Source: a virus
Virus record (IMG/VR): IMGVR_UViG_3300045107_000159
Location: 1-64,000 of that record
Strand: one strand, 5' to 3'
DNA length: 64,000 nt
Positions 1,755-59,234 of the stretch are shown one piece after another (the stretch's first letter is position 1; every line of letters starts with the position of its first letter). The notes under the pieces were generated by a model, which saw only the letters and a list, made by a program, of their open reading frames with translations, had not been told where the DNA came from and searched no databases. The position numbers and the translations under genes were made by a program.

Positions 1755-2106
1755 AGAGGCAGTCGACAAGGTCAGGCGTGAAACGTGCTGCGGCTGCAAG
1801 AGCCGTAAGCCGTGCTTTTTGTCTTACGACCGCGCGCGCGCCACGATTCGCAAACATCGCGGCCGCCGCAAGCTGTCGAGGCGTCCTCGCTGCTATGTCC
1901 GCGTTTACCGGTGCAAAAGCTGCCGGCATTGGCATGTCGGCACCAGCAACAAGACGCTCGACGGCCGCCGCAACCCCTTCAAGAAGTTTCTGGTCCGCTA
2001 CGAGCATGACCTGGCCCGCTGGAAAGAGAATTTAGACAGGGTCGACCGCATTATAGATGGCGAACGTTTGCAAAATTTGCAGCCACCCGCAGAAACTGGA
2101 GATTGA
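1741..2106 (+). CDS. basic Cys-rich (Zn-ribbon-like) protein
   Basis: GTG start overlaps the preceding stop. Cys pairs CCGCKSRKPC ... CYVRVYRCKSCRHWH. GC3-rich. The 3' end overlaps the terS start by ~50 nt. Confidence 0.45.
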   Translation: MARIEEAVDKVRRETCCGCKSRKPCFLSYDRARATIRKHRGRRKLSRRPRCYVRVYRCKSCRHWHVGTSNKTLDGRRNPFKKFLVRYEHDLARWKENLDRVDRIIDGERLQNLQPPAETGD

Positions 2107-2758
2107 TCGGCTAATCGCCGGCGGGAAACAATTACGCGCCATTGCGCGCCAGTTTTCGATTCATCATTCGTCCGTAACGCGCCACATTAACAAATGTATC
2201 CCCTTGATTCTCGAAGGGATGCGCGCGGAAGCCAAGAAAGAGCGCGCGATTGTCGTCGAGGCCGAGATAAATCGCGTTTTCGCCCGCTTGAACAAGCTGA
2301 TCGACGCGTGCGACGCCTGGCTGACCGACCCGGACGACCCCTCGATTTACACCCTAGACGCCCGGGCGACCGAGCTCCTCGTCATTTACGAAGACGGCAA
2401 CGACCTGAACGACAGGGGCGAGCCGAGGCGCAAGCGTGACAATCTCTCGAAACTCCTCACCCTCCTCAACAAGGAAGCGAAGGTCGACGCTCTCACCATC
2501 ACCACGAAAAGCGCCGACCCTCGCGACCTCATCGTGAAGACCGCCGGGCAGATCAAAGAGCAGCTTGAGCTCTTTGCCAGGCTCCAGGGCCTCTTCCAGC
2601 GCGACCGCGCGAACGAGTCCGACCGCGTCCACGACCGCGAGATGGCGGCGATCGTTAAGGCCGAGGTCGAGAAGCTGATTAAGTCCGGATGCACGAAGGA
2701 AGAGGCGCTCGGCATAATTACTGAGGTCGAGCCTGACGCGCTTAAATGGGTGGTCTAA
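2057..2758 (+). CDS. terS: terminase small subunit (putative)
   Basis: N-terminus MANVCKICSHPQKLEIDRLIAGGKQLRAIARQFSIHHSSVTRHINKC (CxxC plus HTH), as in many phage small terminases. Lies immediately upstream of, and overlapping, the large terminase ORF. Confidence 0.6.
   Translation: MANVCKICSHPQKLEIDRLIAGGKQLRAIARQFSIHHSSVTRHINKCIPLILEGMRAEAKKERAIVVEAEINRVFARLNKLIDACDAWLTDPDDPSIYTLDARATELLVIYEDGNDLNDRGEPRRKRDNLSKLLTLLNKEAKVDALTITTKSADPRDLIVKTAGQIKEQLELFARLQGLFQRDRANESDRVHDREMAAIVKAEVEKLIKSGCTKEEALGIITEVEPDALKWVV
2070..2080 (+). repeat. dispersed dyad 11-mer GCAAAATTTGC, copy 1
   Basis: Exact match read directly. Lies 13 nt into terS (read as CKIC) and is read as LQNLQ in the overlapping upstream ORF. 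Confidence 0.9.
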
Positions 2759-4833
2759 GCGTTATTGAAAGGGCGAAGGCCGTCCAGTCCTTCCGCTCGA
2801 AGCTCGCCGTCAAATTCCCGCGCCGCCGGCGCGGCGGAATCGGCCATGCGCTTCAGAGCGCGTTAGACGGCGCCATCGCCGCCCGCGAGATCATTCCCGA
2901 GGCGCAGCAACTCCTGCGCGAGCAGCCGTACCGCGACAACACGCCCGAGGAGCGCGCCGCCCGCGAGTACCAGATCGACCTGGTCGCATGGCAACTCAAC
3001 CGCGCCGCCGACGTCGCCGAGGAGCGTCTTCGCTACATCGAGGCGATTCAGACGCCGGAGCAGATCGAAGCGGAACACGCGAAATGCGCCAAAGGCGTCG
3101 AGGGGACTATCCACTGGTTCGAGTATTACGCCTGGGGTTACGACCCGCGAGAGGACGCGCCGCTCGCGATCATGCCTTTCGTGCTGTTCAAGTTTCAGGA
3201 GCGTTACGTACGGTGGGTGGAATCGCTGATCTTTGCGCAGAAGGCCTCTGGGATGGTCGAGAAAGCCCGCGATATGGGAGCCACGGTCGGCGCGATCAAT
3301 TTGATCGTTAAACAGTGGCGGTACCGCCCCGGGTTCTCGGCGATGCTGACGTCCGCGACCGAAGACTTGGTCGACAGTCAGAAGGATCCCGACACTTTGT
3401 TCGAAAAGGTTCGATTCCAGATCCGCCTCCTGCCGAACTGGATGTTGCCGAGCGGGCTGGACGTCGACAAAGGGCTGACCTACATGAACATCCCCAATCC
3501 CGAGAACGGGGCTGTCATCACCGGCCAGGCGCCGACGAAGAAGGTCGGCCGACAAAGGCGGCGCACCGTCGTTCTCTGCGACGAGTTTCAGGTTTACCCC
3601 CAAGGCGGCTATCCCCAATACACGTCGCTTTCGCAAACGACCCGTTCAATCCTCGTCCTCGGCACGCCCGAGGGCAAATTCAATAAATACGCCGAGCTCC
3701 GCCACTCCGGACACGCGAACGTGTTCGAGATGGATTGGAAAGAACACCCCTGGAAGGACAAGAGATGGTATGACTCTCTCCGACCTGGCTATTGCGGTCC
3801 TCCGATGACCGACCAGCAAATCGCGCAAGAGATCGAGCGGAATTACGACGCGAGTCAACCCGGCAAGGTTTTCCCGGGCTGGCGTGAGGAGTACACGCTC
3901 ATCACCTGGTCCGAGCTCGTCGCGTATTACAAGCGTTTCAAACTCGACCGCCACTTTCTCGCCGGCGACGGCTCATACCGCGTCCCGTACGATTGGACTT
4001 GGGGCCGAACTCACGACTACGGCCAGACCGATCAACACCCCTGGATTGTCACGCACGCGGCCAGGCCGCGCGAGAATTACCCGCTCCACGACAGCGTGTT
4101 CGTTTTCTCCTGTCACCGAATTACCCCGACGGCCGCCGCGGTGGGCGAGGCTCAGCCGCAGATTGATAAGGTCGAGCGCGGCCTCGGTTTCCGCGATTAC
4201 ACTGGAAAGATGGTCCACCGGTACGAGTTTTCCGAGAACTCGCATGAGGCGGAGGAGACGCGGAAGACCTTTCGGGACGAGTTCGGCGAATACTGGACGC
4301 CTTGGAACACCGATTACAACCTGGGCATCCCGCAAATCCAGGAATGGATTCGGCTGATTCAGCCGCAGATGCCGAACCCGATCCGGCCGGCGCTGAGCGG
4401 CCGCACACGCATTTATTTCGTCGCGCCTGACGATGAATACCGCCTGGTCCTCAACGAGAGCTCCGGCGGCTATTTCGTGACGCCGTCGAAGACCGACGCC
4501 GGGTTCAAGCTTTTACGCTTGGAAATGCCGGCCTATCACTACCCGCCGAGCGAGCAGGGCAAGGCCGTTAAGGACATGCGGCCGCTCAAGCTGCAAGACG
4601 ACACCATCGATACCATCCGCGCGTTCGCGACGCATTGGGGGCCCGGCCTGGCGCCGAAGACGGTCGACGAGCGCGTGAATGACGCGCTGCCCGAACACCT
4701 CCGCGACGAGAACGTCGGCGCAATGTCGCAGGGGCGCCGCCTGGCGCGCGAGATCGCGATCGCCGAGCAGCGCGCGATTATCGACAAGGAAGATGTGGGC
4801 GACTTCGGGAGCTTTTGGGATGGCACCTCGTAA
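2746..4833 (+). CDS. terL: terminase large subunit
   Basis: 695 aa. Deviant Walker A-like KARDMGATVGA (KxRxxGxT pattern of several terminase families) and Walker B-like TVVLCDEF. Start overlaps the terS stop. Confidence 0.75.
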   Translation: MGGLSVIERAKAVQSFRSKLAVKFPRRRRGGIGHALQSALDGAIAAREIIPEAQQLLREQPYRDNTPEERAAREYQIDLVAWQLNRAADVAEERLRYIEAIQTPEQIEAEHAKCAKGVEGTIHWFEYYAWGYDPREDAPLAIMPFVLFKFQERYVRWVESLIFAQKASGMVEKARDMGATVGAINLIVKQWRYRPGFSAMLTSATEDLVDSQKDPDTLFEKVRFQIRLLPNWMLPSGLDVDKGLTYMNIPNPENGAVITGQAPTKKVGRQRRRTVVLCDEFQVYPQGGYPQYTSLSQTTRSILVLGTPEGKFNKYAELRHSGHANVFEMDWKEHPWKDKRWYDSLRPGYCGPPMTDQQIAQEIERNYDASQPGKVFPGWREEYTLITWSELVAYYKRFKLDRHFLAGDGSYRVPYDWTWGRTHDYGQTDQHPWIVTHAARPRENYPLHDSVFVFSCHRITPTAAAVGEAQPQIDKVERGLGFRDYTGKMVHRYEFSENSHEAEETRKTFRDEFGEYWTPWNTDYNLGIPQIQEWIRLIQPQMPNPIRPALSGRTRIYFVAPDDEYRLVLNESSGGYFVTPSKTDAGFKLLRLEMPAYHYPPSEQGKAVKDMRPLKLQDDTIDTIRAFATHWGPGLAPKTVDERVNDALPEHLRDENVGAMSQGRRLAREIAIAEQRAIIDKEDVGDFGSFWDGTS

Positions 4834-5137
4834 GAAAAATCGCAGGGCGCCGTATCGCGCGCCGATCGCGCCCGCGCCAGTGTCGACGCCGGCGGCCGAC
4901 ATTCCGGCCCCGCCAGCTGACGCGCCGTCGCCGGGCGTCTGTTCCGCCTGCGAGGCGCTCCGGATCGAGTTGAAAGGTCTTTTGGAACGCGTCCTCACCC
5001 TTGAAAGCAGGGTCGATGCGCTGTCTACGGCGCCTCTCCCTTCCTCAGCCAACAAGCCGGAGCGCGACCAGGTTCCCGCCCCGGAATATATCGCTAACGC
5101 GCCGATCGACGGGGAAGGCCCGCCGTTCGGCGCTTAA
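4820..5137 (+). CDS. hypothetical protein, 105 aa (P/A-rich N-terminus, short coiled segment)
   Basis: Internal ATG at 4820 overlaps the terL end by 14 nt. The upstream part of the tracked ORF (4679-) lies inside terL and looks like a shadow frame. Confidence 0.45.
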   Translation: MAPRKKNRRAPYRAPIAPAPVSTPAADIPAPPADAPSPGVCSACEALRIELKGLLERVLTLESRVDALSTAPLPSSANKPERDQVPAPEYIANAPIDGEGPPFGA

Positions 5138-10081: not shown

Positions 10082-11395
10082 ATGGATGACACGACTTCAT
10101 TGGCGGACGCCCTATCCGCGCCCGCCCCCGCTCCAGCCGCCGCCCCCGACCCGCAACCCACGACCGCAAACACCGCAACACCCGCTCCTCAGCCAAACGG
10201 GGCGGCCCCGGCCCCTGCCCGCGACGTGAACCCTTACGTCCCGCAGGGCCAGCCTTCGCAAAATTTGCAACAGGGCGACCAGGGCAAACAGGGCGACCAG
10301 GTCAAGCAGGCGGTAAACGGACAGCCGGCGCAGCAGCAACAGGACCAACAGGCGCAGCGGCCGGACGTCCCGCAGGAGTACGCGGAGGCGTACCAGTGGC
10401 GCAATCAAATCGGCGAGGAGGCGAAGGCGTTCGGCGGGCTGCAAAACGTGCCGCAGGCGCTGAAGTGGAGCCGCATGCTTTTCGGCTTGGACCAGACGCC
10501 GGAGGGCATGACGCCGGCCGGCCACTTCTTGCAAAACCTGTTCGATTCCGACCGCGAAGTTTATGACGGTTTGTTGACTGACATCGCCACGACCCACGCG
10601 AAGCAACTTACTCCGCTTCTCGAAGAGAAGATCCTCGCGGCGAACGGGATCCCGAAAGAGCGCCTGGGCGAGGTCCGCGACTTTTTGAAGTACGGCCGCG
10701 TGAACGTCACGGAGTCGGCGCACCGCGATTTTGTCGGCCAGATCGCGCAAGACTGCCAGCAGATTTTCCCGAAGCTTTCCGAGTCGACGCGGAACTGGAT
10801 CGTCGACCAGGTCGACCGCGGGCTGATGACGTGGGAGTTCGCCGAGGAGCAGATCCGCGAAAAGGGCGTCCTCGTGGCGTTACAGGAGCGCGAACAGCAA
10901 CAAAAGCTCGACGTCGAGCAGCGCAAGACGGCCGAAGCCGAAATGCGGGCGCAGGGCGTCATTAACGAGTCCGTGCAGCGATACGAAGACGCCTTTGTGA
11001 ACGCGAAGGCGGCGCAGCTCGGCGTCGAGGCCGAGACCGTCCGCGACTGGGTCGCCCGGGCGGCGTCGGAGCTAGACCTGGCGGCGCAGCAGAACCCCAA
11101 ACACCCGGCCAGGCTCGCCTGGGACGAGTTGAGGACGGCCGCCAAGTCGGCGAACCCTCTCAGAGTCAACGCCGCAATGAACAGCGTCCAGGCCGTCTTC
11201 GAGGAACACTTTAACGCCATGCTCGCGCGGCGCAATGGCAAGGCTCCGGCGCAGAACGGCCAGCAGCCGAACGGCCAGCCCCCTTCGCTCAGACAGCCGC
11301 AGCAGCAGCAACAATTTGAGCCTGACAAGCCCGGCGGTGAGAACCTCGATAACGTCTCGCTTCAAGACTACCTGTTCGGCCGGGCCGGTGTGTAA
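10082..11395 (+). CDS. scaffolding-like protein (Q/A/P-rich, coiled-coil)
   Basis: AAGGAG RBS. Low-complexity P/A/Q N-terminus, long helical E/Q/A-rich body and Q-rich C-terminus. Lies directly upstream of the capsid candidate. Confidence 0.5.
   Translation: MDDTTSLADALSAPAPAPAAAPDPQPTTANTATPAPQPNGAAPAPARDVNPYVPQGQPSQNLQQGDQGKQGDQVKQAVNGQPAQQQQDQQAQRPDVPQEYAEAYQWRNQIGEEAKAFGGLQNVPQALKWSRMLFGLDQTPEGMTPAGHFLQNLFDSDREVYDGLLTDIATTHAKQLTPLLEEKILAANGIPKERLGEVRDFLKYGRVNVTESAHRDFVGQIAQDCQQIFPKLSESTRNWIVDQVDRGLMTWEFAEEQIREKGVLVALQEREQQQKLDVEQRKTAEAEMRAQGVINESVQRYEDAFVNAKAAQLGVEAETVRDWVARAASELDLAAQQNPKHPARLAWDELRTAAKSANPLRVNAAMNSVQAVFEEHFNAMLARRNGKAPAQNGQQPNGQPPSLRQPQQQQQFEPDKPGGENLDNVSLQDYLFGRAGV
10258..10268 (+). 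repeat. dispersed dyad 11-mer GCAAAATTTGC, copy 2
   Basis: Exact match. Read as SQNLQQ using the A/T-ending codons CAA AAT TTG. Confidence 0.9.
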
Positions 11396-20052: not shown

Positions 20053-20546
20053 ACGAGCTGCGAGGCGACTACGTCCGGCGCGTCGACCACACGGAGGAGG
20101 GCGACCGCGCATTACTCCGCCGAGTCTTCCTGTGGGCGGCCTGCGCGCCGGCGCTTTATCTGGACGGCGGCGGCTACCACAGCGTCGAAGACTTCCTCGC
20201 GCCGCCCCTGAACTCCTTCGAGTATTTCGTCTTCATCGACGACCGCCCCGCCGCGCTCCTGACACTCATGCGCCTCGGCTCATACCGCAAGGTTTACCAG
20301 GTCGGCCTCATCACCGACCCCGACGCGAGTCTCCGCAAAATTTGCAAACTCCTACTCGGCTTTATGGGCGCCGTCTTCGAAGTGATCGCGGACGCCCTCT
20401 TCGTCGATCTCCCGGACTCTCCGGACTTCGCGGCGACCAGAAAGCTCGCCAGATTCTTCGGGTTAGCGCCCGTTTCTCAAACCAATTTCATCCTTTTCAA
20501 GAGTCAATATGGGATCAAGAAACCAACCAGCGACCCTCAAAAATGA
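20049..20546 (+). CDS. hypothetical protein, 165 aa
   Basis: GTG start overlaps the previous TGA (GTGA). GC3-rich. Confidence 0.5.
   Translation: MNELRGDYVRRVDHTEEGDRALLRRVFLWAACAPALYLDGGGYHSVEDFLAPPLNSFEYFVFIDDRPAALLTLMRLGSYRKVYQVGLITDPDASLRKICKLLLGFMGAVFEVIADALFVDLPDSPDFAATRKLARFFGLAPVSQTNFILFKSQYGIKKPTSDPQK
20335..20345 (+). repeat. dispersed dyad 11-mer GCAAAATTTGC, copy 3
   Basis: Exact match. Read as RKICK here, a different frame from copies 2, 4, 5 and 6. Confidence 0.9.
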
Positions 20547-38500: not shown

Positions 38501-41500
38501 GTTACGCGACGGCAAGTCGCTGATCGTCCACCGCTCCGTTAAGCCGGAGTACAAGGACAAGTGGCAGGTCACATGGCTCGACAAGGACGGCGAGCCCTTC
38601 AGAGACACCGCGTTCAAAGACTTCCGCGAGACGCTGGACGAGCTCACGCGCTTTTACGGACTCGACCTCGACCAGGCCTCGGTCGCGCCGGCCGCACAGG
38701 CGCAGCCGCAGGCCTCCGCGCCGGCGGAGTTCGGCGCCGAGAACAAAGTCTTCACGCGCGACCGCGCCGACAAAGCGCGCGACCTCCTGAAGAAGAAATT
38801 CGCCGAGATGTCGCGGCAGACGAACGCCGGCGTCCCGATCGATCCGGAGATGATCCAAGCCGGCGTGGACCTGGTCGGTTATTACGTCGAGGGCGGCGCG
38901 CGCACGTTTGCGGACCTGACCAAGCGCATCATTGGCGACTTGGGCGAGTCCGCCCGGCCGTACGTGAAGTCTTGGTATCTGGCCGTGCGGAATTATCCGG
39001 GCTTCGATAAGAGCGGGATGGAATCGGAAGCCGATCTCGACCGCCTCGAATCCGGCGAAGAACAGCCGACGCTCACTCATCGGGATCCCGAACTTGACCG
39101 CAAGCCGATACTCGCCGAGACGAAAGACGGCCGCAAGATCGTCGCCAACCCCGCGAACGAGAGCGGGGTGTCCGTAGTAAAGGACCGCTCAGAGGACATG
39201 GGCGGATACTCGTCTAGTTCGACGCAGGTCGACCTGCCGAAAGACATCGCGGACCAGGTCGTCGCGTTTGGTAAGAAAATCCCCGACTCCGCGCTGACGG
39301 GAGACGGTCGCGAGAAGCGGCCGCATGTCACGATCCTCTATGGCCTACATGGTTTCGACCCGAAGTTCGTCCAGGCGGCGCTGGAAGGCGAGCGGCCTGT
39401 CAAAGTCACGTTTGGTAAGGTGTCACTCTTCGAAAACGACGAGAGGGACGTGGTCAAAGTCGATGTAACGAGTCCGGATTTGCACCGCCTCTATGCAAAA
39501 GTTCTCAAGTCTCAGCCGAACACACAAACCTTCCCCGAGTACAAGCCGCACGCGACGATCGCCTATGTGCGAAAAGGCCAGGGCGCGAAGTACGTCGGCG
39601 ACAACTTCCTCGAAGGGAAGTCCATCACGCTCGACAAGGTCGTTTTCTCCGGGCGCGACGGCGAGGAGACGGAGATCCAGTTAAACGGCAAGCCGGCCGA
39701 GCAGTTGGACGAAACTCAGGCGGCCGAACCCGTGGAAGCGCCGGCGGAGCAGCCCGCGGCCCGCGACTACGGCACGCCGGCGGAGCCGAACATTCCTGAC
39801 CTGGCGGCCGCGTTCTCTGAAAAATTTGCAAAAGGCGAGGGCTTCCGCACGACGGCCGAGGCGCGCGCGTACGCTGCCGAGCTCCTTGGCGGCGAAGTCG
39901 GGGCCGGATCGCCGGCGGCGAAGCAGATCGACGAGGCGGTTGAACTCGGCGCCGTGCGCGCCGGGCGCGACTTGGCCGCCAAGGGACTTTCGTCGGCGGA
40001 GACTTACGCCGGCATGCTGAAGATCCTCGACGCTCAGCCGACGCTCAACGAACGCACGTCCACGTCCATCGCGAACCAGGCCTTTTCTACGCCGGTACCG
40101 CTGGCTTTCGCCGCGCAGCAGCTCGCCGGCGTCGACGAAAAAACGACGGTCTACGAGCCGACGGCGGGCAACGGCGCGCTCGTGATGGCGGCGAAGCCCG
40201 AGAACATTACGGCGAACGAGCTCAATCCGGAGCGCGCGGCCAACCTGCGCGAATCGATCGACGCGGCCGAAGTCTCGAACGCCGACGCCACGCAGTTCGA
40301 CCCGGGCAAAAAGTTCGACGTCGTGATCGCGAATCCCCCATTCGGCCCGGTTCGGACCGAGAACGGGTCAAAGCGGTTCCAGACGCCATTCGGCGAGACC
40401 ACGGAAATCGACCACGCGATCGCGTTCAAGGCGTTAGAGTCGATGAAGGACGACGGGAGCGCGGTTTTGATCGTCGGCGGAATCTCGCCCCTGGCCAAGT
40501 CGGAGGAGGCGCGATCGGACGCGTACAACACCTCAGCGAAAAGACGCTTCTATTTTTACTTGTACCAAAATTATAATGTTGTCGACCATTTCACGGCCGC
40601 CGGTTCCATGTACAAAAAGCAGGGCGCGGGCTGGCCTGTAGACGTGATCGTAATTAAGGGGCGCGGAAAGTCGGGGCTGGAGCTCCCGGCCGTCGAAGTT
40701 CCGCGGATCATCAGCAACTATGACGAACTCGGCAATCTTATCGAGAACCCCCGCCAGCCAGCCGCAAGGCCGGCCTCAAATCGTGTATTGGAGTCCGGGG
40801 AACGCGGAGCTCGGAGTGATCAAGGCGGCGGTAGACATGCCGATCAGCCACGCGGATTACGTCGACCTTCTGTGTCAACGGCTGGAGGAGAGGCTCAAGC
40901 GGGAGGAAAATCCGGAGCAAGTCCTGGCGGACGCCCGCGAACAACTCCGAAGCTCGTTCGGGAGCCTAACTTATTTGAAGACGCCGACCGAGTGGATTCT
41001 GGAAAACCCGCAGATACAGGAGAGACTCAACTCCCTGCGCGTGAGCCCGCCCAAGGGCTTCCGGATGAAACCAGGTCCGGACCAGCAGCGGCTGCGGGAG
41101 GCTTACGAACAGACCAGTCTGCTCCAGTGGGTGGACGAACTGACGTGGGGGCTCGACGAACACCTGTCGTAGCCGAAACCGAGTCACATTCCCCTTACAA
41201 ACCGCTTAGCAAAGCCAACAGCCTGAACGTCGCAGTCCCTAGGAATATGAGCGGGGCGACGGAAAAGGCTCTCTCCGACTTCGAGGAGCGCCACGGCTCC
41301 CCGGACGAATACCTGGCCGAAAAACTCGGCTACGACGTCAAAGACATCCCGAAATATTTCGGCGCCGAACAGGTCGACGCTGTCGCGCTGGCCGTCTCGA
41401 ACATCGAGGCGGGTAAGGGTTTCGTGATCGGAGACCAGACCGGAATCGGCAAAGGGCGCACGAATGCGGCGATAATCCGCTACGCGATCAAGAACGGGAA

Positions 41501-47500: not shown

Positions 47501-49481
47501 GTACGAAAAACAGCTCTCGGCCGACGTCCGCACCTGGGGCCCGGCGATGTGGCGCGAGCTCGGCGCGCTGAAGAAGGGCGCGGGATCGATCTTCGGCGAC
47601 GTCGCCGACATGATGTATTACGGGACCACCACCCTCGGACAGAATGTCGAGATGGCGGGCGAGGTTCACAAGAAACGCATGGCGGCTAAGCAAGGCGAGC
47701 GCGAGAAGATTACCGGCGGCACGGACAAGTACGAGCTCGGGAATCGGCCGAAAATGATCCCCGGGGTCGACCAGGCGCTGATGACGGTCGGCCGCGTTCA
47801 GGGCGCCGCCGACGTTCCGTTCTTTAACGTGATGTTCGCGACGGCGCTGGCGGCCGAGGCCGACGCCACGGCGAAGAAGATCGCCCGCGAGAATCCCGAA
47901 CTCGAGTTCACGGCCGAAGAGGTGAAGGCGCTCGCGCGCGACCTGGCGCATGAGCCGTCGCCGGCGATGATCGTTCACGCCGCGGACGAGGCCAACCGGT
48001 TCAAATTGGATTATCCGACCTGGGGTTACGAGCAATTGCAAAAGTTGCGCAACTCGGAGCGCATCAAACAGGGCGGCCGCCACGTCGAGGCCGCTTGGAA
48101 GGCCGCGCTCGATTTCGTTGTTCCGTTCTCGAAAATCCCCTTGGCCGCGGTGGATATGGCGCTTTTCCGTTACAGCCCTGTCGGGTTCGGCCGCGTCGGC
48201 TCCCGCCTGGTGAAGGCGGGCAGGGAATTGAACGAGGCGAAACGGACGGCGGAGCGCCAGGGCCGCAAGCTCGGCGCGACCGAAGGCCGGCAATCGGAGG
48301 CCTTCGCGCGCGACACGGCCGAACTCTACCGCCAGGCGATCGTCGGCTCGATCTCCTGGGCGGCGCTCGGCCTCCTGGGCGCGCTCGGATACGCCTCATT
48401 CACCGGTGGCGACGACGACAAGGACAGGAAGGGCGCCGCGGCGAAAGAGGCCCTCGGCGAGAAGTACACGCCGGAAATGATCGTGGGGGATTACGCCGTC
48501 GACGTGGGCAAGCTCGGGCCGGTCGGCCAGGCCGCCGCGCTCGGCGGCCGCATCGCCGCGGCCTCCCGCCGGCGGTACGAGGAGAAGCGCGAAGATTACG
48601 AGCCGGAATCGAAGCGGCTCGACAGGACGTTCGGCGCGATCGGCAAGGGCGCGTTCTTGGACAACCCCCTCGGCCAGGGCGCGAAGGACGTTATCGACGC
48701 CTTCGATTCCGGCAGCCCGGGCGCCGGCGCCGCGAAGTTCCTCGGCGGTAAGGCCGGCGCGATCGTCCCCGGGGCGCTGCGCGACGTCGCCAAAATGACC
48801 ACACCAACGAAGGTCATGCCGGACGACAATTCCGGCCTCGGTAGGATCCGCGGCGATCTCCGCTCCGCCGTGCCGTCCCTCCGGGCGCAAATGCAACCGC
48901 GCCTCGACGCGCTCGGCCGGCCGGTCGACCAGCCGAATCCGTTCGCGTTCGTCCGTTCGCTGCGCCACAACGACCAGGTCGAAGACACTCTCCGCGTCGG
49001 CTCCGGACTTCCGAAGCCCGCGCGCGACCAGGGCGAGCCCGCGGCAGAGTACAACCGGCGGCTGCAGCGCAACGCCGGCAACCTGAACGACACAATGCGG
49101 AGCCTGCGGCGCGATCCGGAGATGCAGACGGCCTCGCCGCTCGCGCGCCGGGCGATCTATGAGCAGGCCTTCAACTCGAAACAGATGGAGCGCGCCGGCA
49201 AGCTTTCGGAAGAGTCCGTCCAGGCGGAGCGCCACATCGAGGGGTTGAAGGCCGACGCCTTCGCGGCGCTGGCCGGCTCCGCCGAGTACCAGGCGCTCAA
49301 CGAGAAGGATAAGGCGGCCGCCCGTAAGCTCATTACAGAGGAGCTGAAGCGCTACCGCGCCCGGGTGGGCAGCGTCGACAGGGCAGGGAGGCCGCGCGCC
49401 GAGAAGCCGGCCGAGATCCCTGATTGGACGCCGGGCAACTTGGCTAGGGCGGCTTTGCAAAATTTGCGGGCCGGCCGGTGA
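32589..49481 (+). CDS. giant polyvalent virion protein (5,630 aa): SLT, ART-like, 2H phosphoesterase, N6-MTase, Sno/SNF2-like helicase, HExxH peptidase
   Basis: Uninterrupted 16,893-nt frame with the catalytic signatures listed as separate domain features. The MTase-plus-helicase core resembles phage P1 DarB and plasmid methylase-helicase fusions. See the findings on two internal stretches whose coding signature is out of frame. Confidence 0.7.
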   Translation: MPFDELDDQEQSGGQTPSGGQPEQQEMTLDQFEDHYAKVFKIPKYLRQAMKEQESGADDTKALSKKGAVGRWQVMPDTAAKYGLDTNDPFDNAYAGMRYLREKYDQVDSKITEPGARWQAALAGYHGGERQINHINKTGEIAPGNDGNIETGNYADNIMRRWQQLSSGDHSTGLNKVEMGAGDTMDLGTGKITKPAPAQPATKPKDVLDGVPVDPSNPFEFRAPLAKLPAEQPSRLPGGPIRADVFAGGTPPQNLQTPQRARLERPTRQLEQPSPFDFRGPLAQVPEGMGQGPQPGATVKVDVGQPANVAPTSLRVMREDARARELARAKAPHDHSGPTWRDLPQETRNMLENPQAAAALTPDARDYLESLRAADAQAQAAYERDTDIQNAPWYPEQLANRAARGFSGTIDSSVKGLSLLHPDIENRLRQSFIMGTTEEDQQILRRRFPVDPTDDSYLAKAAEAAGSAVPFAATSAMGGFLGFPEFLIPSVMGAASNAGQTYDEAIAAGQNPDQAKRAAVIGAFIGLSEGFGVGSLGAPAEHAATHGLLRSIGDEAMEEFLQEGFSQVMNNINAKELSGYDTKRAITEGVAESALLGGLVGGGFGGAHHVVGAAAGSLADRADRQAGARAVQNEGFAPLNLTPTTMGPTQLTSLRQAAQPEYRKRLQEAAAPAQAQTQGAEAAAAAGATPAAESAPAAPLTGRARLDAAVQRLQSLQQPKKGEKPTTAQTLADLETKGQQLATFAIQRADADPDTANLALSQSIGHYQRAINTLKGSPEYQAELMSIAGGQAAETPLRDKMLELDKTLKGLQSFSERDARAEADRVKAQKEAEKKAAQDEKERKAAEVKAQREADERARVDARNKKVADAERNRAEQEAKRNAAEAQKTLDRRQAEESRIRERDEAERAKADQASTREAEGEIRRMRLFDESNAAADRAAADSRSREESGDYSGAIGALRTQQDALQTALRYLPQTPEAVKTRAAHVERIQEIANRIPDLRRRAAAAPQNLRRFPAGAGVGTENGPESRLFRSVTNPEGGVPQTESGYSPGAGFERLAEKSRGPVEDQTSLLTAIRRMGGISDDGDTSGELRRIGLKEAGTTGLARRDGHSPDTMREMLASEGYLPKDSTVSDMYDAIEGELRGRGSSRESSEEDLSRHYEEEAEREKALGDIDLRLRTGEIDQFDATRERNKLVRPQYTPAETGTEPIESYSRSPHLAGGTIELDGATYLVRNEQGDVLGANANKMAAVRNAEDRASGSGDFAINEEGRSVYAPQSEEKNVTPRLVRPTERESVPKATAENIDELRRRRDVLSRLRADRGGEMSDDLEDEYKELGAQIIPYEDSQRTPEEKRALEQAPPWADTRPWRPPTRKETLRAVETAEREVDEEIAEAVESADPEEAELLENAAQLVDGLLGRVNADVDTAELLELAIGGDADAEATLTRYAERKLNAGADAVRDLIEAGRSERERERTAERPDERPDERRDERPGAEERESESRDETGAPVAAPEERPQEPGAPSRPASAQTLDLLSVDPATVAVADFDTYLGSLEQLRNDQLVGKVELEDWANRQLRAKLKRANEVRVKLRKEGKLGPKNPPRQGKQKQLKKDELGRRLMAEQGLGARLEEAIAGYGRGLVSISDLRSQFPDVGKEAFDREIGKLHDQQRVALHEHDWPAGMTEDARNALVERPARDARTGQPGKAYYNGVTLREGVKPGEEVKPKEGPTLYHGSHEALTALGVRTPKTFDSFGTWFTSDPELAGHYGANVYESKLPADLNLIEYEGNGQTGDPTADINRKILASPDVARRSGFEKEAAILEKTQPDTPRLNELTRKLEHSGQPLTPAEQKELRQLREAADASRTLGKSQRYMQTLRQQTEAAGYDGIVWRNVMYDVSDRPHDVYVIFNKEDLPVTKRQAAAPKAKPVEAAKPAAAAEMTPEEMIAEDERREVARVKRIDDFINDHNETPFQAPLRDGKSLIVHRSVKPEYKDKWQVTWLDKDGEPFRDTAFKDFRETLDELTRFYGLDLDQASVAPAAQAQPQASAPAEFGAENKVFTRDRADKARDLLKKKFAEMSRQTNAGVPIDPEMIQAGVDLVGYYVEGGARTFADLTKRIIGDLGESARPYVKSWYLAVRNYPGFDKSGMESEADLDRLESGEEQPTLTHRDPELDRKPILAETKDGRKIVANPANESGVSVVKDRSEDMGGYSSSSTQVDLPKDIADQVVAFGKKIPDSALTGDGREKRPHVTILYGLHGFDPKFVQAALEGERPVKVTFGKVSLFENDERDVVKVDVTSPDLHRLYAKVLKSQPNTQTFPEYKPHATIAYVRKGQGAKYVGDNFLEGKSITLDKVVFSGRDGEETEIQLNGKPAEQLDETQAAEPVEAPAEQPAARDYGTPAEPNIPDLAAAFSEKFAKGEGFRTTAEARAYAAELLGGEVGAGSPAAKQIDEAVELGAVRAGRDLAAKGLSSAETYAGMLKILDAQPTLNERTSTSIANQAFSTPVPLAFAAQQLAGVDEKTTVYEPTAGNGALVMAAKPENITANELNPERAANLRESIDAAEVSNADATQFDPGKKFDVVIANPPFGPVRTENGSKRFQTPFGETTEIDHAIAFKALESMKDDGSAVLIVGGISPLAKSEEARSDAYNTSAKRRFYFYLYQNYNVVDHFTAAGSMYKKQGAGWPVDVIVIKGRGKSGLELPAVEVPRIISNYDELGNLIENPRQPAARPASNRVLESGERGARSDQGGGRHADQPRGLRRPSVSTAGGEAQAGGKSGASPGGRPRTTPKLVREPNLFEDADRVDSGKPADTGETQLPAREPAQGLPDETRSGPAAAAGGLRTDQSAPVGGRTDVGARRTPVVAETESHSPYKPLSKANSLNVAVPRNMSGATEKALSDFEERHGSPDEYLAEKLGYDVKDIPKYFGAEQVDAVALAVSNIEAGKGFVIGDQTGIGKGRTNAAIIRYAIKNGKTPIFVTQKPALYADMIRDLSDIGMPNARVLITNGGESIPLNDAGTEWMQAVKDAKDKDQKAPPKPSDAKVFRAKPDHDQMLERLAQSGKLAGYDVVFTTYDQMNPQGGKFDRPRHGAVSRLGDGGVVILDESHTAGGTEPGARSNPNQQTRSKFFRQLVNKAGSVFYSSATYAKRPDVMDLYSKTDLGQLGGNKTSLADLFHRGGVALQQVVASKLAEAGQYLRRERTFDGIRYDPQVVKVEKEQAEHVSRAMAVIAAFDEAKKGAIKALDKEAKREGKSLSGDGSTGSAGADSTNFTSLMHNVVDQMLLGLKAEPAAQQAIEAIKRGEKPVLTVSNTMESFLKEAGLSPGDPVDLSFRDILLRYLNRSRDVTIRDRDGKRSRRPLSDDELARGGALSAFEAAEDFIRDADFADIPISPIDYVRQKIQAAGYSVDEITGRGTQVDYTGKMPILKARSSADTKVAGRRRVIQQFNNGKLDALILNQAGSTGISLHASEKVEDKNVRHMIIWQPEKNIDTHMQMLGRVNRTGQVVVPRYTQMIADVPAEKRPAAVLLKKMASLNANTTASRKSAVQTEGVTDFMNELGDEVIARLMATEGDIHRKLGSPLDYDGDSMASAEAARRVTGRIPLLPIAEQEALYDRIEQEYKDYLEQRDAMGDNPLEAKTMDFRAETLKKDLLVEGTPGSPFSEPAYLERVKIQVPVKPYTQAEVMGMLRDNLGLGESAELGELQQAGKRQVKELRDQVRARVDDFKDNMASEYDSDATLQAQRQKADQTFLRWNAIANLVTPGSTVTVETPSGSVSGVVISLQERGKPKNPAAFGAWQARLAVLDGRELRFSFNDLVDKGGQPRVKFTDEVQRFNQETGLFEYRPMLPEFDDSQGLKKQTRYMVTGNIVSGYSKIPKGQILNYTDADGVVRQGVLMPANFDADKAMQEMPVEFKSADHVLQFIDKSGAVTLSDPQPAFRISRGKNGKVLMAASGQKANAGKIILSPALRDMGIEFSGNRTRMTAQMDQETARRAIWGILSGEVTGEPETLQAENLRDVAKGIVSSGSGPARERSRDWQTKSVAMAESLADIAENTRIRVPKSPSRANMIYGNEQAHAWVDKADTRIHGVREPFNGMNLSKQEAKQMAEEIRREKYWWRDEAPDVKRRADAAIDKLADAFDNAADKFDRVIYVRAQGRGFRNLRGTVYHELTHNAERTYRSVKGWFAAQPVFEKIKAALEDKGYKPHEMISESVAHILGGQRRQLGLSLKEAVDYLDSYFANISFANGRESVNSFNPMNAAPEMRQALREAKEKHGPREPVRIDEEAIQRAIRRRSGGDGESGERDRPLRRPQPGEGGLADAGQRRLERPTGVARERVAADEDDELTPHEKLVEDFGKDRDYISDFFYDDLPGKFDPKKLITDQSRAIWDAYHKRLSDFVEDFSGQPAKMAAQIKAAQAELSQGESEYQRLNDRYYALPEDSAEEAEVMEKMEALEASNAQLEEKIDYLQDEHGYLKNDVREFKRLVERNTRYDEADIESDLGREANHKIFQIENERDDAMRKALSDLQNPPASKPDFVVEAEQRLREAAAGQLAGSGTRQLADLAIVTGWRVYEKGMSFAQWAREVVANHGDKIRPYLQGAWRKVRSAKADQKVGRSIERLSDEYDSLTDRQGDLRKAMFGHADAVEAATNERYSIDEDVRRLNEQLKNSVANTRAAQAAIRRLAIDSESPEITKEKARLDRQIVEGRKNIERLKARLDRIRDERDHIGDELETFEAWDQPRLDPKMEDWAKRVSEIRKERHAEQAKKRPPGTYMGAGFGSLQALFDSKPAPKTTPLREVVNKLGHEPLGVDPAQVAKATQEQFIEALSKGKNGTLPGARAQYWAEKLGAKKTADRLAEKQAKFIEDGVDLVAKIADATERMAKAQRGSAEYEKAKSDQDRARIKLANQFSKAGEYTHPFDYAAKAYKASLLSALHIPYFNIVAQVAQFPFHEAQKAADWLVPQSVFKKWGIPYEKQLSADVRTWGPAMWRELGALKKGAGSIFGDVADMMYYGTTTLGQNVEMAGEVHKKRMAAKQGEREKITGGTDKYELGNRPKMIPGVDQALMTVGRVQGAADVPFFNVMFATALAAEADATAKKIARENPELEFTAEEVKALARDLAHEPSPAMIVHAADEANRFKLDYPTWGYEQLQKLRNSERIKQGGRHVEAAWKAALDFVVPFSKIPLAAVDMALFRYSPVGFGRVGSRLVKAGRELNEAKRTAERQGRKLGATEGRQSEAFARDTAELYRQAIVGSISWAALGLLGALGYASFTGGDDDKDRKGAAAKEALGEKYTPEMIVGDYAVDVGKLGPVGQAAALGGRIAAASRRRYEEKREDYEPESKRLDRTFGAIGKGAFLDNPLGQGAKDVIDAFDSGSPGAGAAKFLGGKAGAIVPGALRDVAKMTTPTKVMPDDNSGLGRIRGDLRSAVPSLRAQMQPRLDALGRPVDQPNPFAFVRSLRHNDQVEDTLRVGSGLPKPARDQGEPAAEYNRRLQRNAGNLNDTMRSLRRDPEMQTASPLARRAIYEQAFNSKQMERAGKLSEESVQAERHIEGLKADAFAALAGSAEYQALNEKDKAAARKLITEELKRYRARVGSVDRAGRPRAEKPAEIPDWTPGNLARAALQNLRAGR
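32691..33083 (+). other. lytic transglycosylase (SLT) domain of giant ORF
   Basis: KEQESGADDTKALSKKGAVGRWQVMPDTAAKYGL ... AYAGMRYL ... LAGYHGG matches the ES ... GLMQ ... AYNAG pattern of the SLT family. Confidence 0.75.
33344..33354 (+). repeat. dispersed dyad 11-mer GCAAAATTTGC, copy 4
   Basis: Exact match. Read as PQNLQT. Confidence 0.9.
35612..35622 (+). repeat. dispersed dyad 11-mer GCAAAATTTGC, copy 5
   Basis: Exact match. Read as PQNLRR. Confidence 0.9.
37761..38320 (+). other. ADP-ribosyltransferase-like (ART-PolyVal-type) domain, tentative
   Basis: GPTLYHGS (YHGS at 37773-37784) ... FGTWFTSDPELAGHYG ... VYESKL ... GYDGIVWRNV ... DVYVIF. This is an H...[FY]-x-[ST]...E-like arrangement seen in ART domains of polyvalent proteins. 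My recognition is weak. Confidence 0.35.
39205..39690 (+). other. 2H phosphoesterase (LigT / 2-prime-5-prime RNA ligase-like) domain
   Basis: Two H-x-T motifs in hydrophobic context at the typical ~75-aa spacing: RPHVTILYG (HVT at 39324-39332) and KPHATIAYV (HAT at 39549-39557). Confidence 0.65.
39990..40710 (+). other. N6-adenine DNA methyltransferase domain
   Basis: SAM-binding motif I VYEPTAGNGAL (~40149-40178) and catalytic motif IV NPPF (40332-40343, in DVVIANPPFG). Confidence 0.8.
40720..41172 (+). CDS. embedded +1-frame coding-like segment (150-aa ORF) inside giant ORF
   Basis: Hand-counted GC3 is ~77% in this frame versus ~41% in the giant-ORF frame over the same nucleotides. The translated peptide is globular-looking (W, Y, C and amphipathic helices), whereas the giant frame here reads R/G/P/A-rich. 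The +1 frame is open from 40654. No good SD precedes ATG 40720. Confidence 0.4.
   Translation: MTNSAILSRTPASQPQGRPQIVYWSPGNAELGVIKAAVDMPISHADYVDLLCQRLEERLKREENPEQVLADAREQLRSSFGSLTYLKTPTEWILENPQIQERLNSLRVSPPKGFRMKPGPDQQRLREAYEQTSLLQWVDELTWGLDEHLS
41330..43230 (+). other. Sno (strawberry-notch)/SNF2-like helicase domain
   Basis: Motif I GDQTGIGKGRT (41430-41462), DExH box VILDESH (DESH at 41889-41900), C-terminal lobe LILNQAGSTGISLHA, and motif VI QMLGRVNRTGQ. Confidence 0.8.
45084..45098 (+). other. HExxH zinc-metallopeptidase motif of giant ORF
   Basis: RGTVYHELTHNAE (HELTH), with a downstream E/H (ESVAHILGG). Matches metallopeptidase modules of polyvalent proteins. Confidence 0.55.
45403..45618 (+). 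CDS. embedded +1-frame coding-like segment (71-aa ORF) inside giant ORF
   Basis: AAGGAG (45393-45398) lies 4 nt upstream of the ATG. Hand-counted GC3 is ~81% in this frame versus ~38% in the giant-ORF frame. The peptide is acidic and helical-looking, while the giant frame reads R/G/E-rich. Confidence 0.4.
   Translation: MGQENQLELMKRRFSERYGDAPEATENPESGTDLYDDLSQAKEAWQTRGKDGLKDLLESRENESRPTKTTS
49457..49467 (+). repeat. dispersed dyad 11-mer GCAAAATTTGC, copy 6
   Basis: Exact match 12 nt before the giant-ORF stop. Read as LQNLRA. Confidence 0.9.
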
Positions 49482-49502
49482 GGGGGTCTGCGCTACATAT
49501 GG

Positions 49503-49553: not shown

Positions 49554-49611
49554 GATTAAAGCCTGTCTCGCGTTTCGCTGCTCGTTACGTAGATAAAACG
49601 CTGATTTATTC

Positions 49612-49642: not shown

Positions 49643-49648
49643 CCGCTC

Positions 49649-49767: not shown

Positions 49768-49786
49768 GCTTACTTATCGACCGCGC

Positions 49787-58307: not shown

Positions 58308-58396
58308 GGCTAGCGGTATACACTAAAAATATTTTCAATAGTATTAACTCTTTAAACTTGTAAAACTATTTAAGCTAGCTTATATTCCCCTCCGCG
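58308..58396. promoter_or_regulatory. AT-rich divergent promoter/operator region (genetic switch)
   Basis: The most AT-rich 89 bp in the window. Rightward promoter: TTGTAA (58358-58363), 17 nt, TATATT (58381-58386), only ~10 nt before ATG 58397, so the mRNA would be near-leaderless. The 10-bp palindrome AAGCTAGCTT (58372-58381) lies in the spacer. Leftward candidates: TTTAAA, 17 nt, AATATT on the minus strand. Confidence 0.55.
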
Positions 58397-58648
58397 ATGG
58401 AACACACAACAACTGAAACCGCTGAGAAACGTCCCAATAAAGTCGTATGTGGCGCTACGGTCGACCCGGCGGAAGTGGAAGAGGTTGTCGGTCTTGCCCG
58501 ACGGCGCACTTGGAGCAAAGCCCAAACTGCAGGGTACTTGATCAGACTCGGCCTTTTTGCGCTGAAAAACGGGCTAGATGTGGAACTAGATCGGCAGGAC
58601 GCGGAGGCGTCCGCCACGAGTACTGAGGGGCTGTTTTTACAATCTTAA
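58397..58648 (+). CDS. ribbon-helix-helix regulator (Cro/Mnt-like role, tentative)
   Basis: VVCGATVDPAEVEEVVGLARRRTWSKAQTAGYLIRLGLFAL fits the RHH pattern. No SD. The promoter -10 sits just upstream. Confidence 0.5.
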   Translation: MEHTTTETAEKRPNKVVCGATVDPAEVEEVVGLARRRTWSKAQTAGYLIRLGLFALKNGLDVELDRQDAEASATSTEGLFLQS

Positions 58649-58771
58649 ATTTCGAAATCCCCGCAAGCGCGGGGTGGGCTGGTAGGCAGGCGGAATGAAG
58701 CAACGTCGCTGACCAGTATCGGCGTGGGCGAGCCTCGTGCCTCGATCTCGCCCACGCCCAAAACGATTCTA

Positions 58772-59101
58772 ATGGAGCCGACCGAGAGACAACAAGACGA
58801 ATGGATGGATTATCGGGACGCGGCGCTCTTGATGCACCGCCCCGCCTCGTACTTCCGCCGGCGGAACGAACTCGGCGAGTACGAGTACTTTCCATCCATC
58901 GAACGTTGGCAGCCGGGCGGGCGCGGGACGCGGCTTTACGTGAAACGCGAACACGTCGAAGCCTGGATCGCCGCCAGCCGCACCCCGGCTCCGTGCCCGA
59001 TCCCGAGCTTCGAGCGGCCAGTCGGCTACGAGAGTATGCGCGACGAGCTGATTCGGCTCGGCGCGTTCGGGACGATGAAATCTCTCGGTTTGAGTTCTTG
59101 A
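58772..59101 (+). CDS. excisionase-like HTH DNA-binding protein (tentative)
   Basis: ATG at 58772 is preferred over GTG at 58724. WMDYRDAALLMHRPASYFRRR ... RLYVKREHVEAWI resembles the excisionase / MerR-type HTH_17 pattern. Confidence 0.4.
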   Translation: MEPTERQQDEWMDYRDAALLMHRPASYFRRRNELGEYEYFPSIERWQPGGRGTRLYVKREHVEAWIAASRTPAPCPIPSFERPVGYESMRDELIRLGAFGTMKSLGLSS

Positions 59102-59195
59102 GTGGCTGACGGCGCATGGGGCGCCGTCGGGCCGGGGCTTGACTCAGCAGGGGCAGGCCCCCGACTGAAACCGGGGCGCGCATATGACGACTCCC

Positions 59196-59223
59196 GCCAG
59201 GAGGGTGCGCGCCTCGGCTTTTT
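59196..59223 (+). terminator. weak terminator-like hairpin
   Basis: GCC-(AG)-GAGG, loop GTGCGCG, CCTC-GGC (7 bp with a 2-nt bulge), followed by TTTTT. Abuts the reverse-oriented 11-mer copy. Confidence 0.35.
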
Positions 59224-59234
59224 GCAAATTTTGC
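59224..59234 (-). repeat. dispersed dyad 11-mer, copy 7 (GCAAATTTTGC on + strand, i.e. reverse orientation)
   Basis: Exact reverse complement. The only intergenic copy. The 14-mer 59222-59235 is the exact reverse complement of CGCAAAATTTGCAA. Followed by the perfect tandem GTCGGTAGAA GTCGGTAGAA (59235-59254). Confidence 0.9.

Follow-up and report, generated by a model that had tools for sequence, protein, structure and literature searches.

The window analysed here, a stretch of 64,000 nt, leaves out 5,273 bp of a 69.3-kb circular phage genome. The phage is a temperate phage of soil Acidobacteria, with an integrase gene at 55737-56951. Its late block includes terS, a scaffold-like gene (10082-11395), a gene referred to here as gene X (20049-20546), a gene for a 2684-aa beta-helix protein and a giant ORF. 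The giant ORF encodes a 5630-aa polyvalent protein with an SLT domain and an Eco57I-like N6-adenine methyltransferase-like domain adjoining a Strawberry-notch/SNF2-type helicase, and at the end of this gene the late block meets a convergent leftward operon. Two RHH genes were confirmed at 57993-58307 (- strand) and 58397-58648 (+ strand).

A sequence-only reading of this DNA had described seven exact copies of an AT-rich dyad, and all seven are present, six on the + strand and one on the - strand, with the exact core GCAAAATTTGC. Dinucleotide shuffles predict 0.03 copies of GCAAAWTTTGC in the window, and seven or more copies were reached in none of 100 shuffles. An eighth exact copy lies outside the window, which brings the whole genome to eight, and the 14-mer CGCAAAATTTGCAA occurs at four places, as previously described. 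In an order-2 Markov ranking of the 11-mers of the window, a null that the earlier reading had proposed, the motif is within the top two for over-representation; the other top 11-mer comes from a different, clustered palindrome. Five sites with one mismatch are present in the window against approximately 0.9 matches expected, whereas the two-mismatch class is background (22 matches with at most two mismatches, 14 expected).

Seven of the eight exact sites are intragenic. Site 1 (2070..2080, +) lies 13 nt into terS, where it is read as CKIC, the first CxxC of the zinc-ribbon/HTH N-terminus, and the upstream gene 1741-2106, which overlaps terS here, reads it as LQNLQ in its final 12 codons. Site 2 (10258..10268, +) is read as SQNLQ in the N-terminal linker, rich in Pro, Ala and Gln, that the scaffold-like gene encodes, and site 3 (20335..20345, +) is read as RKIC within gene X; the K, I and C do not vary across 22 homologues. 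The polyvalent protein contains the next three: site 4 (33344..33354, +) in the Pro-rich linker after the SLT domain (PQNLQ, aa 252), for which a search found no alignable relative; site 5 (35612..35622, +) in a further linker (PQNLR, aa 1008); and site 6 (49457..49467, +) in the last eight codons, at the end of the late block. The earlier reading of QNL(Q/R) in four proteins is thus correct for the four QNL sites but not for the number of proteins, which is two (one site in the scaffold-like protein and three in the giant ORF). Site 7 (59224..59234, -) is intergenic, as had been claimed, between the + strand genes 58724-59101 and 59456-59689; its centre on the + strand is T, a terminator-like hairpin and T-run stand immediately before it and two tandem copies of GTCGGTAGAA immediately after. 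The eighth copy, GCAAATTTTGC (L143:6029), is read as CKFC in a ThiF/E1-like gene. No fixed relation of the sites to gene starts, promoters or terminators was found, and none comes with a sigma-70 or sigma-54 promoter signal.

The one-mismatch sites are located at 25503..25513 (-; GCAATTTTTGC on the + strand) in the beta-helix protein gene, 29685..29695 (+; GCACAATTTGC), 39819..39829 (+; GAAAAATTTGC followed by AA, read as EKFA in the polyvalent protein), 48038..48048 (+; GCAAAAGTTGC) and 63794..63804 (-; GCAAATTTTTC on the + strand) downstream of the replication-initiator gene. Three of these had been listed correctly before; for the second the end coordinate had been given in place of the start, and the fifth was missing. 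The copy at 25503 is possibly a weak or decaying site.

Selection acts on the nucleotides and not on the peptides, as the earlier reading had proposed. In shuffles of synonymous codons, one of the controls suggested with that proposal, 0.21 coding copies are expected compared with the six observed, a number reached in 0 of 1000 shuffles. Seven of the nine places in the proteome with a motif-compatible peptide encode the motif, corresponding to six sites. At least four reading contexts are used (QNL, KIC, KFC and, in relatives, ANFA), in addition to one intergenic copy. Together with exact copies at orthologous positions in relatives despite protein divergence, the varied contexts and the shuffle excess place the selection at the level of DNA.

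A comparison with related phages, likewise suggested earlier, showed that three sites have exact orthologous copies in relatives whose proteins are only 45-69% identical. The orthologue of site 1 is exact at L001:2474, where terS is 67% identical. Exact orthologous copies of site 2 lie at L137:2400 and L151:6620/L152:392, in proteins of 45-50% identity and between diverged flanks; the QNLQ is retained in nine of the ten homologues that span the region, and the gene calls of four further homologues begin at its Leu, which fits a TTG codon there. L153 has no copy of site 2. Site 3 is exact in L240/L241/L242, L239 and L145, with 59-69% amino acid identity in gene X. A single synonymous change in the motif, with the RKIC peptide retained, is present in L149/L150, where gene X and ICMT form a chromosomal cassette in a Blastocatellia MAG, and likewise in L238, where ICMT lies directly 3' of gene X. 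The L145 protein is also encoded on a contig that looks chromosomal, as judged from its neighbours alone, and so the suggestion that the motif decays outside phages rests on two lineages. Phages with another, unrelated TerS type also keep the motif. L141, L015, L016 and L010-L012, which are more distantly related, have no copy, and neither do 80 further phage loci (1.53 Mb in all) that encode a homologous giant protein; the phenomenon is clade-specific.

The exact core is part of a longer, two-fold symmetric motif, YYGCAAAWTTTGCRR, of approximately 13-15 bp. The base at -1 is a pyrimidine and the base at +1 a purine in 13 of 13 copies; these two bases often cannot form a pair, a point against a hairpin. 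Half-sites are separated only by a single central base, which is always W, and each copy is isolated in GC-rich flanks, with no second box within 150 bp. The centre is oriented alike in six of the eight copies and oppositely in two. The central base described earlier as shared is common to the six late-block copies, all of which have the same sense orientation, but this is not general, since the other two copies and copies in relatives are opposite. The copy in L003/L004/L005/L014 has the opposite centre while the genes are transcribed in the same direction, and the two opposite-centre copies of the present genome also lie in or between genes of the same transcription direction. In the intragenic copies, the central base is dictated by the codon that contains it. 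Central-base orientation is therefore independent of transcription direction and strand specificity is not supported, which weakens any reading that needs an asymmetric, oriented signal, namely an ops-like element or a T5-type nick site.

These observations bear on the roles proposed previously, of which a binding site for a dimeric protein is the best fit, given the symmetric flanks and the exclusive 1-bp-centre spacing; there is no support for a role as ops-like element, nick site, methylation target, uptake sequence or pac site. It is highly improbable that the sites are localized single-strand interruptions in virion DNA, as in T5, phiKMV-like and LUZ24-like phages, with the central A/T selecting the strand. 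An exact 11-13 bp motif in few copies at intervals of approximately 10 kb does resemble the known nick consensus sites of T5, phiKMV and tf, and one orientation prevails in six of eight copies. However, a nickase would cut both strands of a palindrome with symmetric flanks, relatives with the same gene order differ in orientation, neither an HNH enzyme nor any other nickase was detected among the scanned phage proteins, and the nicked genomes known to us are those of virulent phages, whereas this phage is temperate. Slightly less probable still is a signal in the transcript or transcription bubble, either an ops-like element for pausing or for recruiting a processivity factor on the 48-kb late transcript, or a site for an RNase or RNA-binding protein (GCAAAAUUUGC). 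The common sense orientation of the late-block copies, the similarity of the 11-mer in length to the exposed non-template strand and a possible 4-bp mini-hairpin would suit such a signal, but the preferred flanking bases show two-fold symmetry and not pairing, no site lies in an operon leader, a search for a NusG/RfaH-like gene was negative, and the region around 59224 folds no better than its shuffles (z = -0.13). A modification or packaging role, with the motif as the target of the methyltransferase domain of the injected polyvalent protein, of a restriction-modification enzyme or of a pac enzyme, is as improbable as nicking. The domain is present, and the terS 5' end, where one copy lies, is a frequent location of pac sites; yet the 80 loci with a homologous giant protein carry no copy, a modification target needs neither enrichment nor positional conservation, and Eco57I-type enzymes recognize short, asymmetric sites. 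Retention of the motif alongside the unrelated TerS indicates that TerS is not its reader, and additional pac sites would have no obvious benefit. The least probable reading is that the phage carries a copy of an uptake-sequence-like or highly-iterated-palindrome-like element abundant in the host chromosome. Uptake sequences are typically exact and present in several reading frames and both orientations, as is this motif, but an 11-kb Blastocatellia chromosomal contig has no copy beyond gene X, approximately 42 kb of other Acidobacteriota MAG contigs have none, the density is approximately one per 9 kb and not one per kb, and the sites are positionally conserved and not turning over.

Binding by a host global regulator of the Lrp/AsnC (feast/famine) family, which would couple phage expression or compaction to host physiology, is unlikely but carries more weight than the preceding readings. 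The dimeric archaeal regulator Ss-LrpB, whose fold is known, has the optimal box TTGCAAAATTTGCAA, in which only a central A-to-T change is tolerated, and it makes two major-groove contacts and requires an A/T centre for bending (PMC1802622). The present sequence is identical to this optimized 15-bp box, including the A/T tolerance at its centre, although the outer TT/AA are only Y/R in the present motif. Scans of early and accessory proteins against Pfam, PHROGs, NCBIfam and PDB sequences yielded one Arc-like RHH match but none to ParB/KorB or Lrp/AsnC, so that no phage-encoded candidate emerged from the scanned proteins, and stability of the motif across phages with 45-50% protein identity and both TerS types is easier to explain with a conserved host factor. 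However, the usual target of family members is an array of degenerate boxes at regular spacing, and Ss-LrpB itself binds three regularly spaced boxes in its own promoter, whereas the present boxes are single, intragenic and kilobases apart. Specificity varies within the family, and the match to one archaeal box may be coincidental. Approximately 70 kb of Acidobacteriota MAG DNA (L016, L017 and L149/L150) contains no exact copy, and the chromosomal gene X cassette copy is decaying.

The copies could plausibly, if tentatively, be putative isolated, high-specificity duplex-DNA sites for a homodimeric protein that acts on the whole phage chromosome. The full site, YYGCAAAWTTTGCRR, would be contacted in the major groove at two GCA/TGC elements, some 8-10 bp from each other, with an A-tract centre between them providing a narrow, bendable minor groove. 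The eight sites keep fixed places round the 69.3-kb genome, and neighbouring sites are never more than 14 kb apart; the largest gap is 13.8 kb, and the sites are more evenly spread than chance by a test on only eight points (P = 0.015 for a maximum gap this small among eight random points). They may have been fitted into coding DNA at the lowest protein cost, in disordered linkers and tails (QNL) and CxxC zinc knuckles (CKIC, CKFC). The binder may be phage-encoded or a host regulator of Lrp/AsnC type. The RHH regulators named earlier are real genes, but the intergenic control region between them contains no motif copy, and so the RHH proteins are not obvious binders and the motif, in contrast to that of L5, does not serve as the primary immunity operator. 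The bound protein presumably acts on the chromosome as a whole, and conjecturally its most likely action would be to block or silence late-gene transcription in the lysogen, either as a roadblock, as at mycobacteriophage stoperators, or by loading at each site and spreading or sliding, as KorB does from OB on RK2.

On the best reading, these two systems would be the closest analogues. L5-type stoperators are more than 20 13-mers across the genome that stop transcription elongation in the lysogen (PMC9283540). Like the present sites, the stoperators of cluster A mycobacteriophages, bound by the L5 gp71 repressor, are near-identical, isolated, single 13-bp sites dispersed through a temperate phage genome, including its late structural region, and conserved as a set over a large clade. 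They differ in being asymmetric, monomer-bound and oriented with transcription, whereas the present site is palindromic and its orientation uncoupled; most of them occupy short gaps between genes, and their sequence doubles as the operator at the early promoter. The OB palindromes of KorB, by comparison, mediate long-range silencing, and OB, TTTAGCSGCTAAA, is a 13-mer with a degenerate central base (PMC11790492). Sites of this kind (KorB-OB of the IncP plasmid RK2 and, more generally, ParB-parS, Noc-NBS and MatP-matS) resemble the present ones as isolated, perfect 13-16 bp palindromes, and OB sites act as loading points for silencing. On RK2 they are scattered round a replicon of approximately 60 kb; that replicon is a plasmid, however, whereas the present sites lie within the coding sequence of an integrase-bearing tailed phage in whose scanned proteins no ParB/KorB-family gene was detected. 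In contrast to the present sites, which have no consistent relation to gene boundaries, the C1 operators of P1 and the inverted repeats of Streptomyces phage phiC31, where one regulator binds many highly conserved, dispersed sites in a temperate phage, are located at promoters or between genes and control individual operons.

The palindrome GCAAAWTTTGC, the core of a site also written CCGCAAAATTTGCAAAC, is a real, strongly selected and clade-specific DNA element. The exact 11-mer occurs seven times in the window, at 2070, 10258, 20335, 33344, 35612 and 49457 on the + strand and at 59224 on the - strand, against 0.03 copies expected, and the sequence-only reading was therefore right to place it far above chance. 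An eighth exact copy lies outside the window, in a ThiF/E1-like gene on the contig L143. One-mismatch copies are also enriched, with five sites against about 0.9 matches expected, whereas the two-mismatch class is at background. Half-site spacings from 0 to 12 were tested, and GCAAA-N1-TTTGC was the sole arrangement, the central base being A or T in every case; no occurrence was found at any other spacing in that range. Shuffling of synonymous codons within genes gave a mean of 0.21 coding copies against the 6 observed, a number reached in 0 of 1000 shuffles, and this result, together with the count relative to expectation, rules out chance or codon bias as the source of the copies. IMG/VR scans with a 14-mer, a 17-mer and a 20-mer returned unrelated single matches only, and the other over-represented k-mers of the distant relatives L141, L015 and L016 resemble ordinary coding repeats.

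The window is 64 kb out of a 69.27-kb circular temperate phage genome, recovered from JGI soil metagenome 3300045256 (contig Ga0484956_0001155), with the missing 5,273 bp present in L143. Its late genes include terS (start 2057), whose product has a zinc-ribbon/HTH N-terminus, TerL (2746-4833), a portal gene (6813-9221), a scaffold-like gene (10082-11395), a capsid gene (11495-12826), a 2684-aa beta-helix protein (21800-29854), and a giant ORF (32589-49481) encoding a 5630-aa polyvalent protein with SLT, ADP-ribosyltransferase, 2H-phosphoesterase, Eco57I-like methyltransferase and Strawberry-notch/SNF2 helicase domains. A tyrosine integrase (55737-56951) lies within a leftward operon, two divergent ribbon-helix-helix (RHH) genes occupy 57993-58307 (-) and 58397-58648 (+), and an Erf-like protein, an SSB and a replication initiator whose gene contains iterons were also identified. 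An excisionase-like protein is encoded at 58724-59101, and the operon at 49.8-57.4 kb has unannotated products. Megablast found no close relative among deposited phage genomes, and no match came from scanning IMG/VR proteins with the major capsid protein, the N-terminus of the giant ORF or the replication initiator. The relatives consist of short contigs from soil metagenomes together with others binned into Blastocatellia or Pyrinomonadaceae MAGs and, given this binning and a Solibacter-type domain in one accessory protein, the host is probably an acidobacterium.

The motif is read as QNL(Q/R) in four copies, as CKIC or RKIC in two and as CKFC in one, the remaining copy being intergenic; an ANFA reading was found in a gene known from relatives only. 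The proteome contains nine peptide-compatible places, and the exact rare codons are used in seven of the nine, which correspond to six sites. A peptide motif, such as a protease site QNL(Q/R), is ruled out by the uniform rare codons, the other frames, the one intergenic copy, and the two peptide-compatible places that do not carry the nucleotide motif. The variety of readings, the intergenic copy, the rare-codon use and the synonymous-shuffle null thus bear out the proposal that selection acts on DNA rather than on peptide. Programmed -1 frameshifting at A_AAT_TTG was also rejected, given that the alternative frames soon close or go nowhere and that two sites are out of frame. The QNL copies are located in Pro/Gln/Ala-rich linkers or C-terminal tails, and the K-I/F-C copies fall on cysteine motifs, namely the CxxC knuckles of terS and ThiF and an invariant Cys of the 20049-20546 product (gene X). 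The signal is positioned at places of protein tolerance, and represents an unusually clear case of a DNA signal superimposed on protein-coding sequence, one that forces rare codons which are fixed across relatives at about 50% protein identity.

The expectation that the motif would recur in related phages was confirmed at every site that could be compared, with three of the eight sites comparable and all three still present at the orthologous place. L001, whose TerS is 67% identical, has an exact terS site. In L137 and L151/L152 the scaffold-linker site is likewise exact, although protein identity is 45-50% and the neighbouring low-complexity sequence has diverged; at the protein level, QNLQ is present in nine of the ten homologues spanning the linker, and four further scaffold gene calls begin at the QNLQ Leu, consistent with a TTG codon there. 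The L153 lineage does not have this site. L145, L239 and L240-242 (59-69% identity) all have the gene X site in exact form, and the protein encoded by L145 also occurs on a chromosomal-looking contig. At the giant-ORF sites, the sole homologue does not align across the positions. Relatives L003/L005/L014 and L004 have a single, oppositely oriented copy, located in a small gene missing from the window, and across close relatives the motif occurs about once per 9-10 kb, as it does in the window. No copy was found in the more distant relatives L141, L015, L016 and L010-L012, and about 70 kb of Acidobacteriota MAG DNA contained no exact copy.

Gene X and an ICMT/PEMT-like membrane methyltransferase gene (20049-21803 in the window) are also found as a two-gene cassette, the second immediately after the first and the intervening phage genes absent, in L149 (8460-9695), L150 (6118-7359) and L238 (625-1952). 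The L149/L150 cassette sits among chromosomal housekeeping genes of a Blastocatellia MAG. Both cassette lineages, L149/L150 and L238, retain RKIC but have altered the motif by one synonymous change (TGT and ATC, respectively), which suggests, from these two lineages only, that the nucleotide constraint is tied to the phage context. The gene X product resembles a GNAT acetyltransferase by eye, and family searches gave no match.

In an alignment of 13 copies, 9 of them independent, only C or T is seen at position -1 and only A or G at position +1, and positions -2 and +2 lean likewise, which makes the site a 13-15-mer with two-fold symmetry, YYGCAAAWTTTGCRR. A hairpin or cruciform is rejected, as the bases at -1 and +1 are often C and A and so unable to pair; such symmetry is what duplex DNA contacted by a symmetric protein would show. 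The base at the centre is independent of transcription, as 59224 and the ThiF-gene copy both have T at the centre in + strand units, as does the L003-group copy. The copies are isolated: six sites have no second box (up to 3 mismatches) within 150 bp, and the one 3-mismatch match at -48 from site 20335 corresponds to the background rate of about 0.5 per 300 bp. AT content within 20 bp of the sites is 0.10-0.53, and these GC-rich flanks rule out an AT-rich nucleation patch for an H-NS/Lsr2-type silencer. Around the 69.27-kb circle, successive sites are 8.2, 10.1, 13.0, 2.3, 13.8, 9.8, 8.9 and 3.2 kb apart, and a largest gap this small has P = 0.015 under random placement. A tandem direct repeat, GTCGGTAGAA x2, abuts the intergenic copy at 59235-59254 and has no other exact copy in the window.

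Several roles put forward for the motif do not agree with this anatomy. An ops-like element of the RfaH type would be orientation-dependent and placed in an operon leader, whereas the copies here lie mid-gene or at gene ends in mixed orientation, and T5-type nick sites, which are physical single-strand interruptions in virion DNA, would be expected to show strand-specific asymmetric recognition, in contrast to the two-fold symmetry over 13-15 bp. Recognition by TerS as a pac site is excluded by retention of the motif in phages of unrelated TerS type. The ops-like, nick and pac readings, and the virion methyltransferase target that had also been suggested, each lack a needed property. An uptake-sequence or highly-iterated-palindrome reading, which would call for very high density throughout the host chromosome, is probably unsuitable too, given 0 exact copies in the approximately 70 kb of Acidobacteriota MAG DNA. 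A link to the polyvalent protein is rejected on the basis of 80 homologous loci (1.53 Mb) from phages that have the helicase part of the giant protein in common, which contain 0 copies. Promoter readings are ruled out by scans: no common -10 or -35 element lies downstream of the sites, sigma-70 scans are at background, and the nearest weak GG-N10-GC match to a sigma-54 promoter or enhancer is more than 1.6 kb from any site. The motif is also not the replication origin, as the initiator gene contains iterons of another sequence, AAAAAAGTGGACA.

Three known systems are closer. In L5-like mycobacteriophages, stoperators block transcription elongation in the lysogen (PMC9283540) and are likewise clade-conserved and dispersed as many isolated copies over early and late regions. 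However, they are asymmetric 13-bp sequences whose orientation follows transcription, whereas the sites here are palindromes with symmetric flanks, and two of the eight copies and the relatives' copy are in the opposite orientation. The L5-type sequence also serves as the early lytic promoter operator, whereas the divergent RHH control region (58308-58396) has no copy at up to 2 mismatches; the sites thus fail two defining stoperator features, and the phage proteins scanned gave no family match to a repressor with an N-terminal HTH and a stoperator domain. The OB palindromes on RK2 are KorB loading points for long-range silencing (PMC11790492) and, like parS and OB, the sites are isolated perfect palindromes in the 13-16 bp range with several per replicon. 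No ParBc match was found in the proteins scanned (Pfam, with a subset against NCBIfam or PHROGs), most of which had no family match of any kind. The sites also resemble Lrp/AsnC (FFRP) boxes, which are 13-15 bp dyads of the form abcde-WWW-e'd'c'b'a' with an A/T centre; the optimised box of the dimeric, Lrp-like Ss-LrpB is exactly TTGCAAAATTTGCAA, with two major-groove contacts, an A/T centre for bending, and only the central A-to-T change tolerated (PMC1802622). The core here is identical to the Ss-LrpB consensus and the flanks are Y/R, and this analogy shows that a winged-HTH dimer can read exactly such geometry. It does not follow that an Lrp homologue is the reader here, and, unlike Lrp/AsnC boxes, which form regularly spaced arrays with cooperative binding or wrapping, the sites do not form arrays.

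The motif is best described as a variation on the dispersed-operator or loading-site theme. The isolation, symmetry and spread of the sites fit single-dimer recognition, and the most likely reading of the sequence is that a candidate binder acts from them on the whole genome. In the prophage, such a protein may hold the long late block, and the operons next to it, in a quiet or organised state, a proposal for which stoperators and KorB OB palindromes provide functional precedents; both illustrate whole-replicon control by mobile elements from a handful of short sequences. Three positions fit roadblock logic: one in the opening codons of terS, one in the closing codons of the giant gene, where the site faces a convergent operon, and one just behind a terminator-like hairpin in the early operon. 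A bolder reading, which we consider improbable, is that the eight sites are 'address labels' of an unrecognised genome-wide system of temperate tailed phages, in which some protein other than ParB or an L5-type repressor would load at regular intervals, on sites set into coding sequence, and would coat, silence or organise the whole prophage or virion chromosome. Its specificity would be lineage-specific, as the distant relative L010 (TerL 41% identical; 70.9-kb IMG/VR contig) carries its own dispersed perfect palindrome, TCCCCCATGGGGGA, with five copies in 22 kb (275, 2024, 6794, 13270 and 15407), four of them inside genes in one shared frame (S/F-P-M-G-D/E). Nothing like the L010 palindrome was found among 80 other polyvalent-protein phage loci. 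To our knowledge, few dispersed single-site systems have been described, none of them from phages of Acidobacteria, for which we know of almost no molecular biology. If the binder were found, the motif would provide a handle for DNA-affinity capture, a marker of this uncultured phage clade in metagenomes, and a way to test long-range silencing or genome organisation in a tailed phage.

Further features were observed elsewhere in the genome. Another perfect palindrome with no relation to the first, TGCTAGTACTAGCA (variants TGCTRGTACYAGCA), is present five times at 53703-54416, as two pairs at 24-bp spacing and one single copy, all in an approximately 800-bp stretch of the leftward operon near the integrase that has no convincing ORF; the cluster looks like a clustered operator or centromere-like array. 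The iterons AAAAAAGTGGACA lie at 62638-62800, with at least five direct copies and additional inverted copies, inside the replication-initiator gene (62305-63507; HTH_36 and DnaA_N), and this region is probably the replication origin. Between the replication module and the packaging genes, L143 1446-6390 (the stretch joining window 64000 to window 1) codes for a ubiquitin-like conjugation trio of Prok-E2_D, Prok-JAB and ThiF/E1 together with a DUF3102 protein. The gap between the giant ORF and the convergent operon (49495-49770) contains a perfect-stem hairpin of approximately 50 nt at about 49500-49550, followed by an AT-rich stretch and, at about 49730-49770, a bidirectional terminator-like hairpin with A and T runs on either side, and could be a small RNA or regulatory region. 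Just 5' of terS, 1741-2106 encodes a small Cys/His-rich, zinc-ribbon-like protein with no family assignment, which is kept upstream of terS in relatives of either TerS type; the 3' end of its gene overlaps terS, and the motif site at 2070 is read through in both frames.
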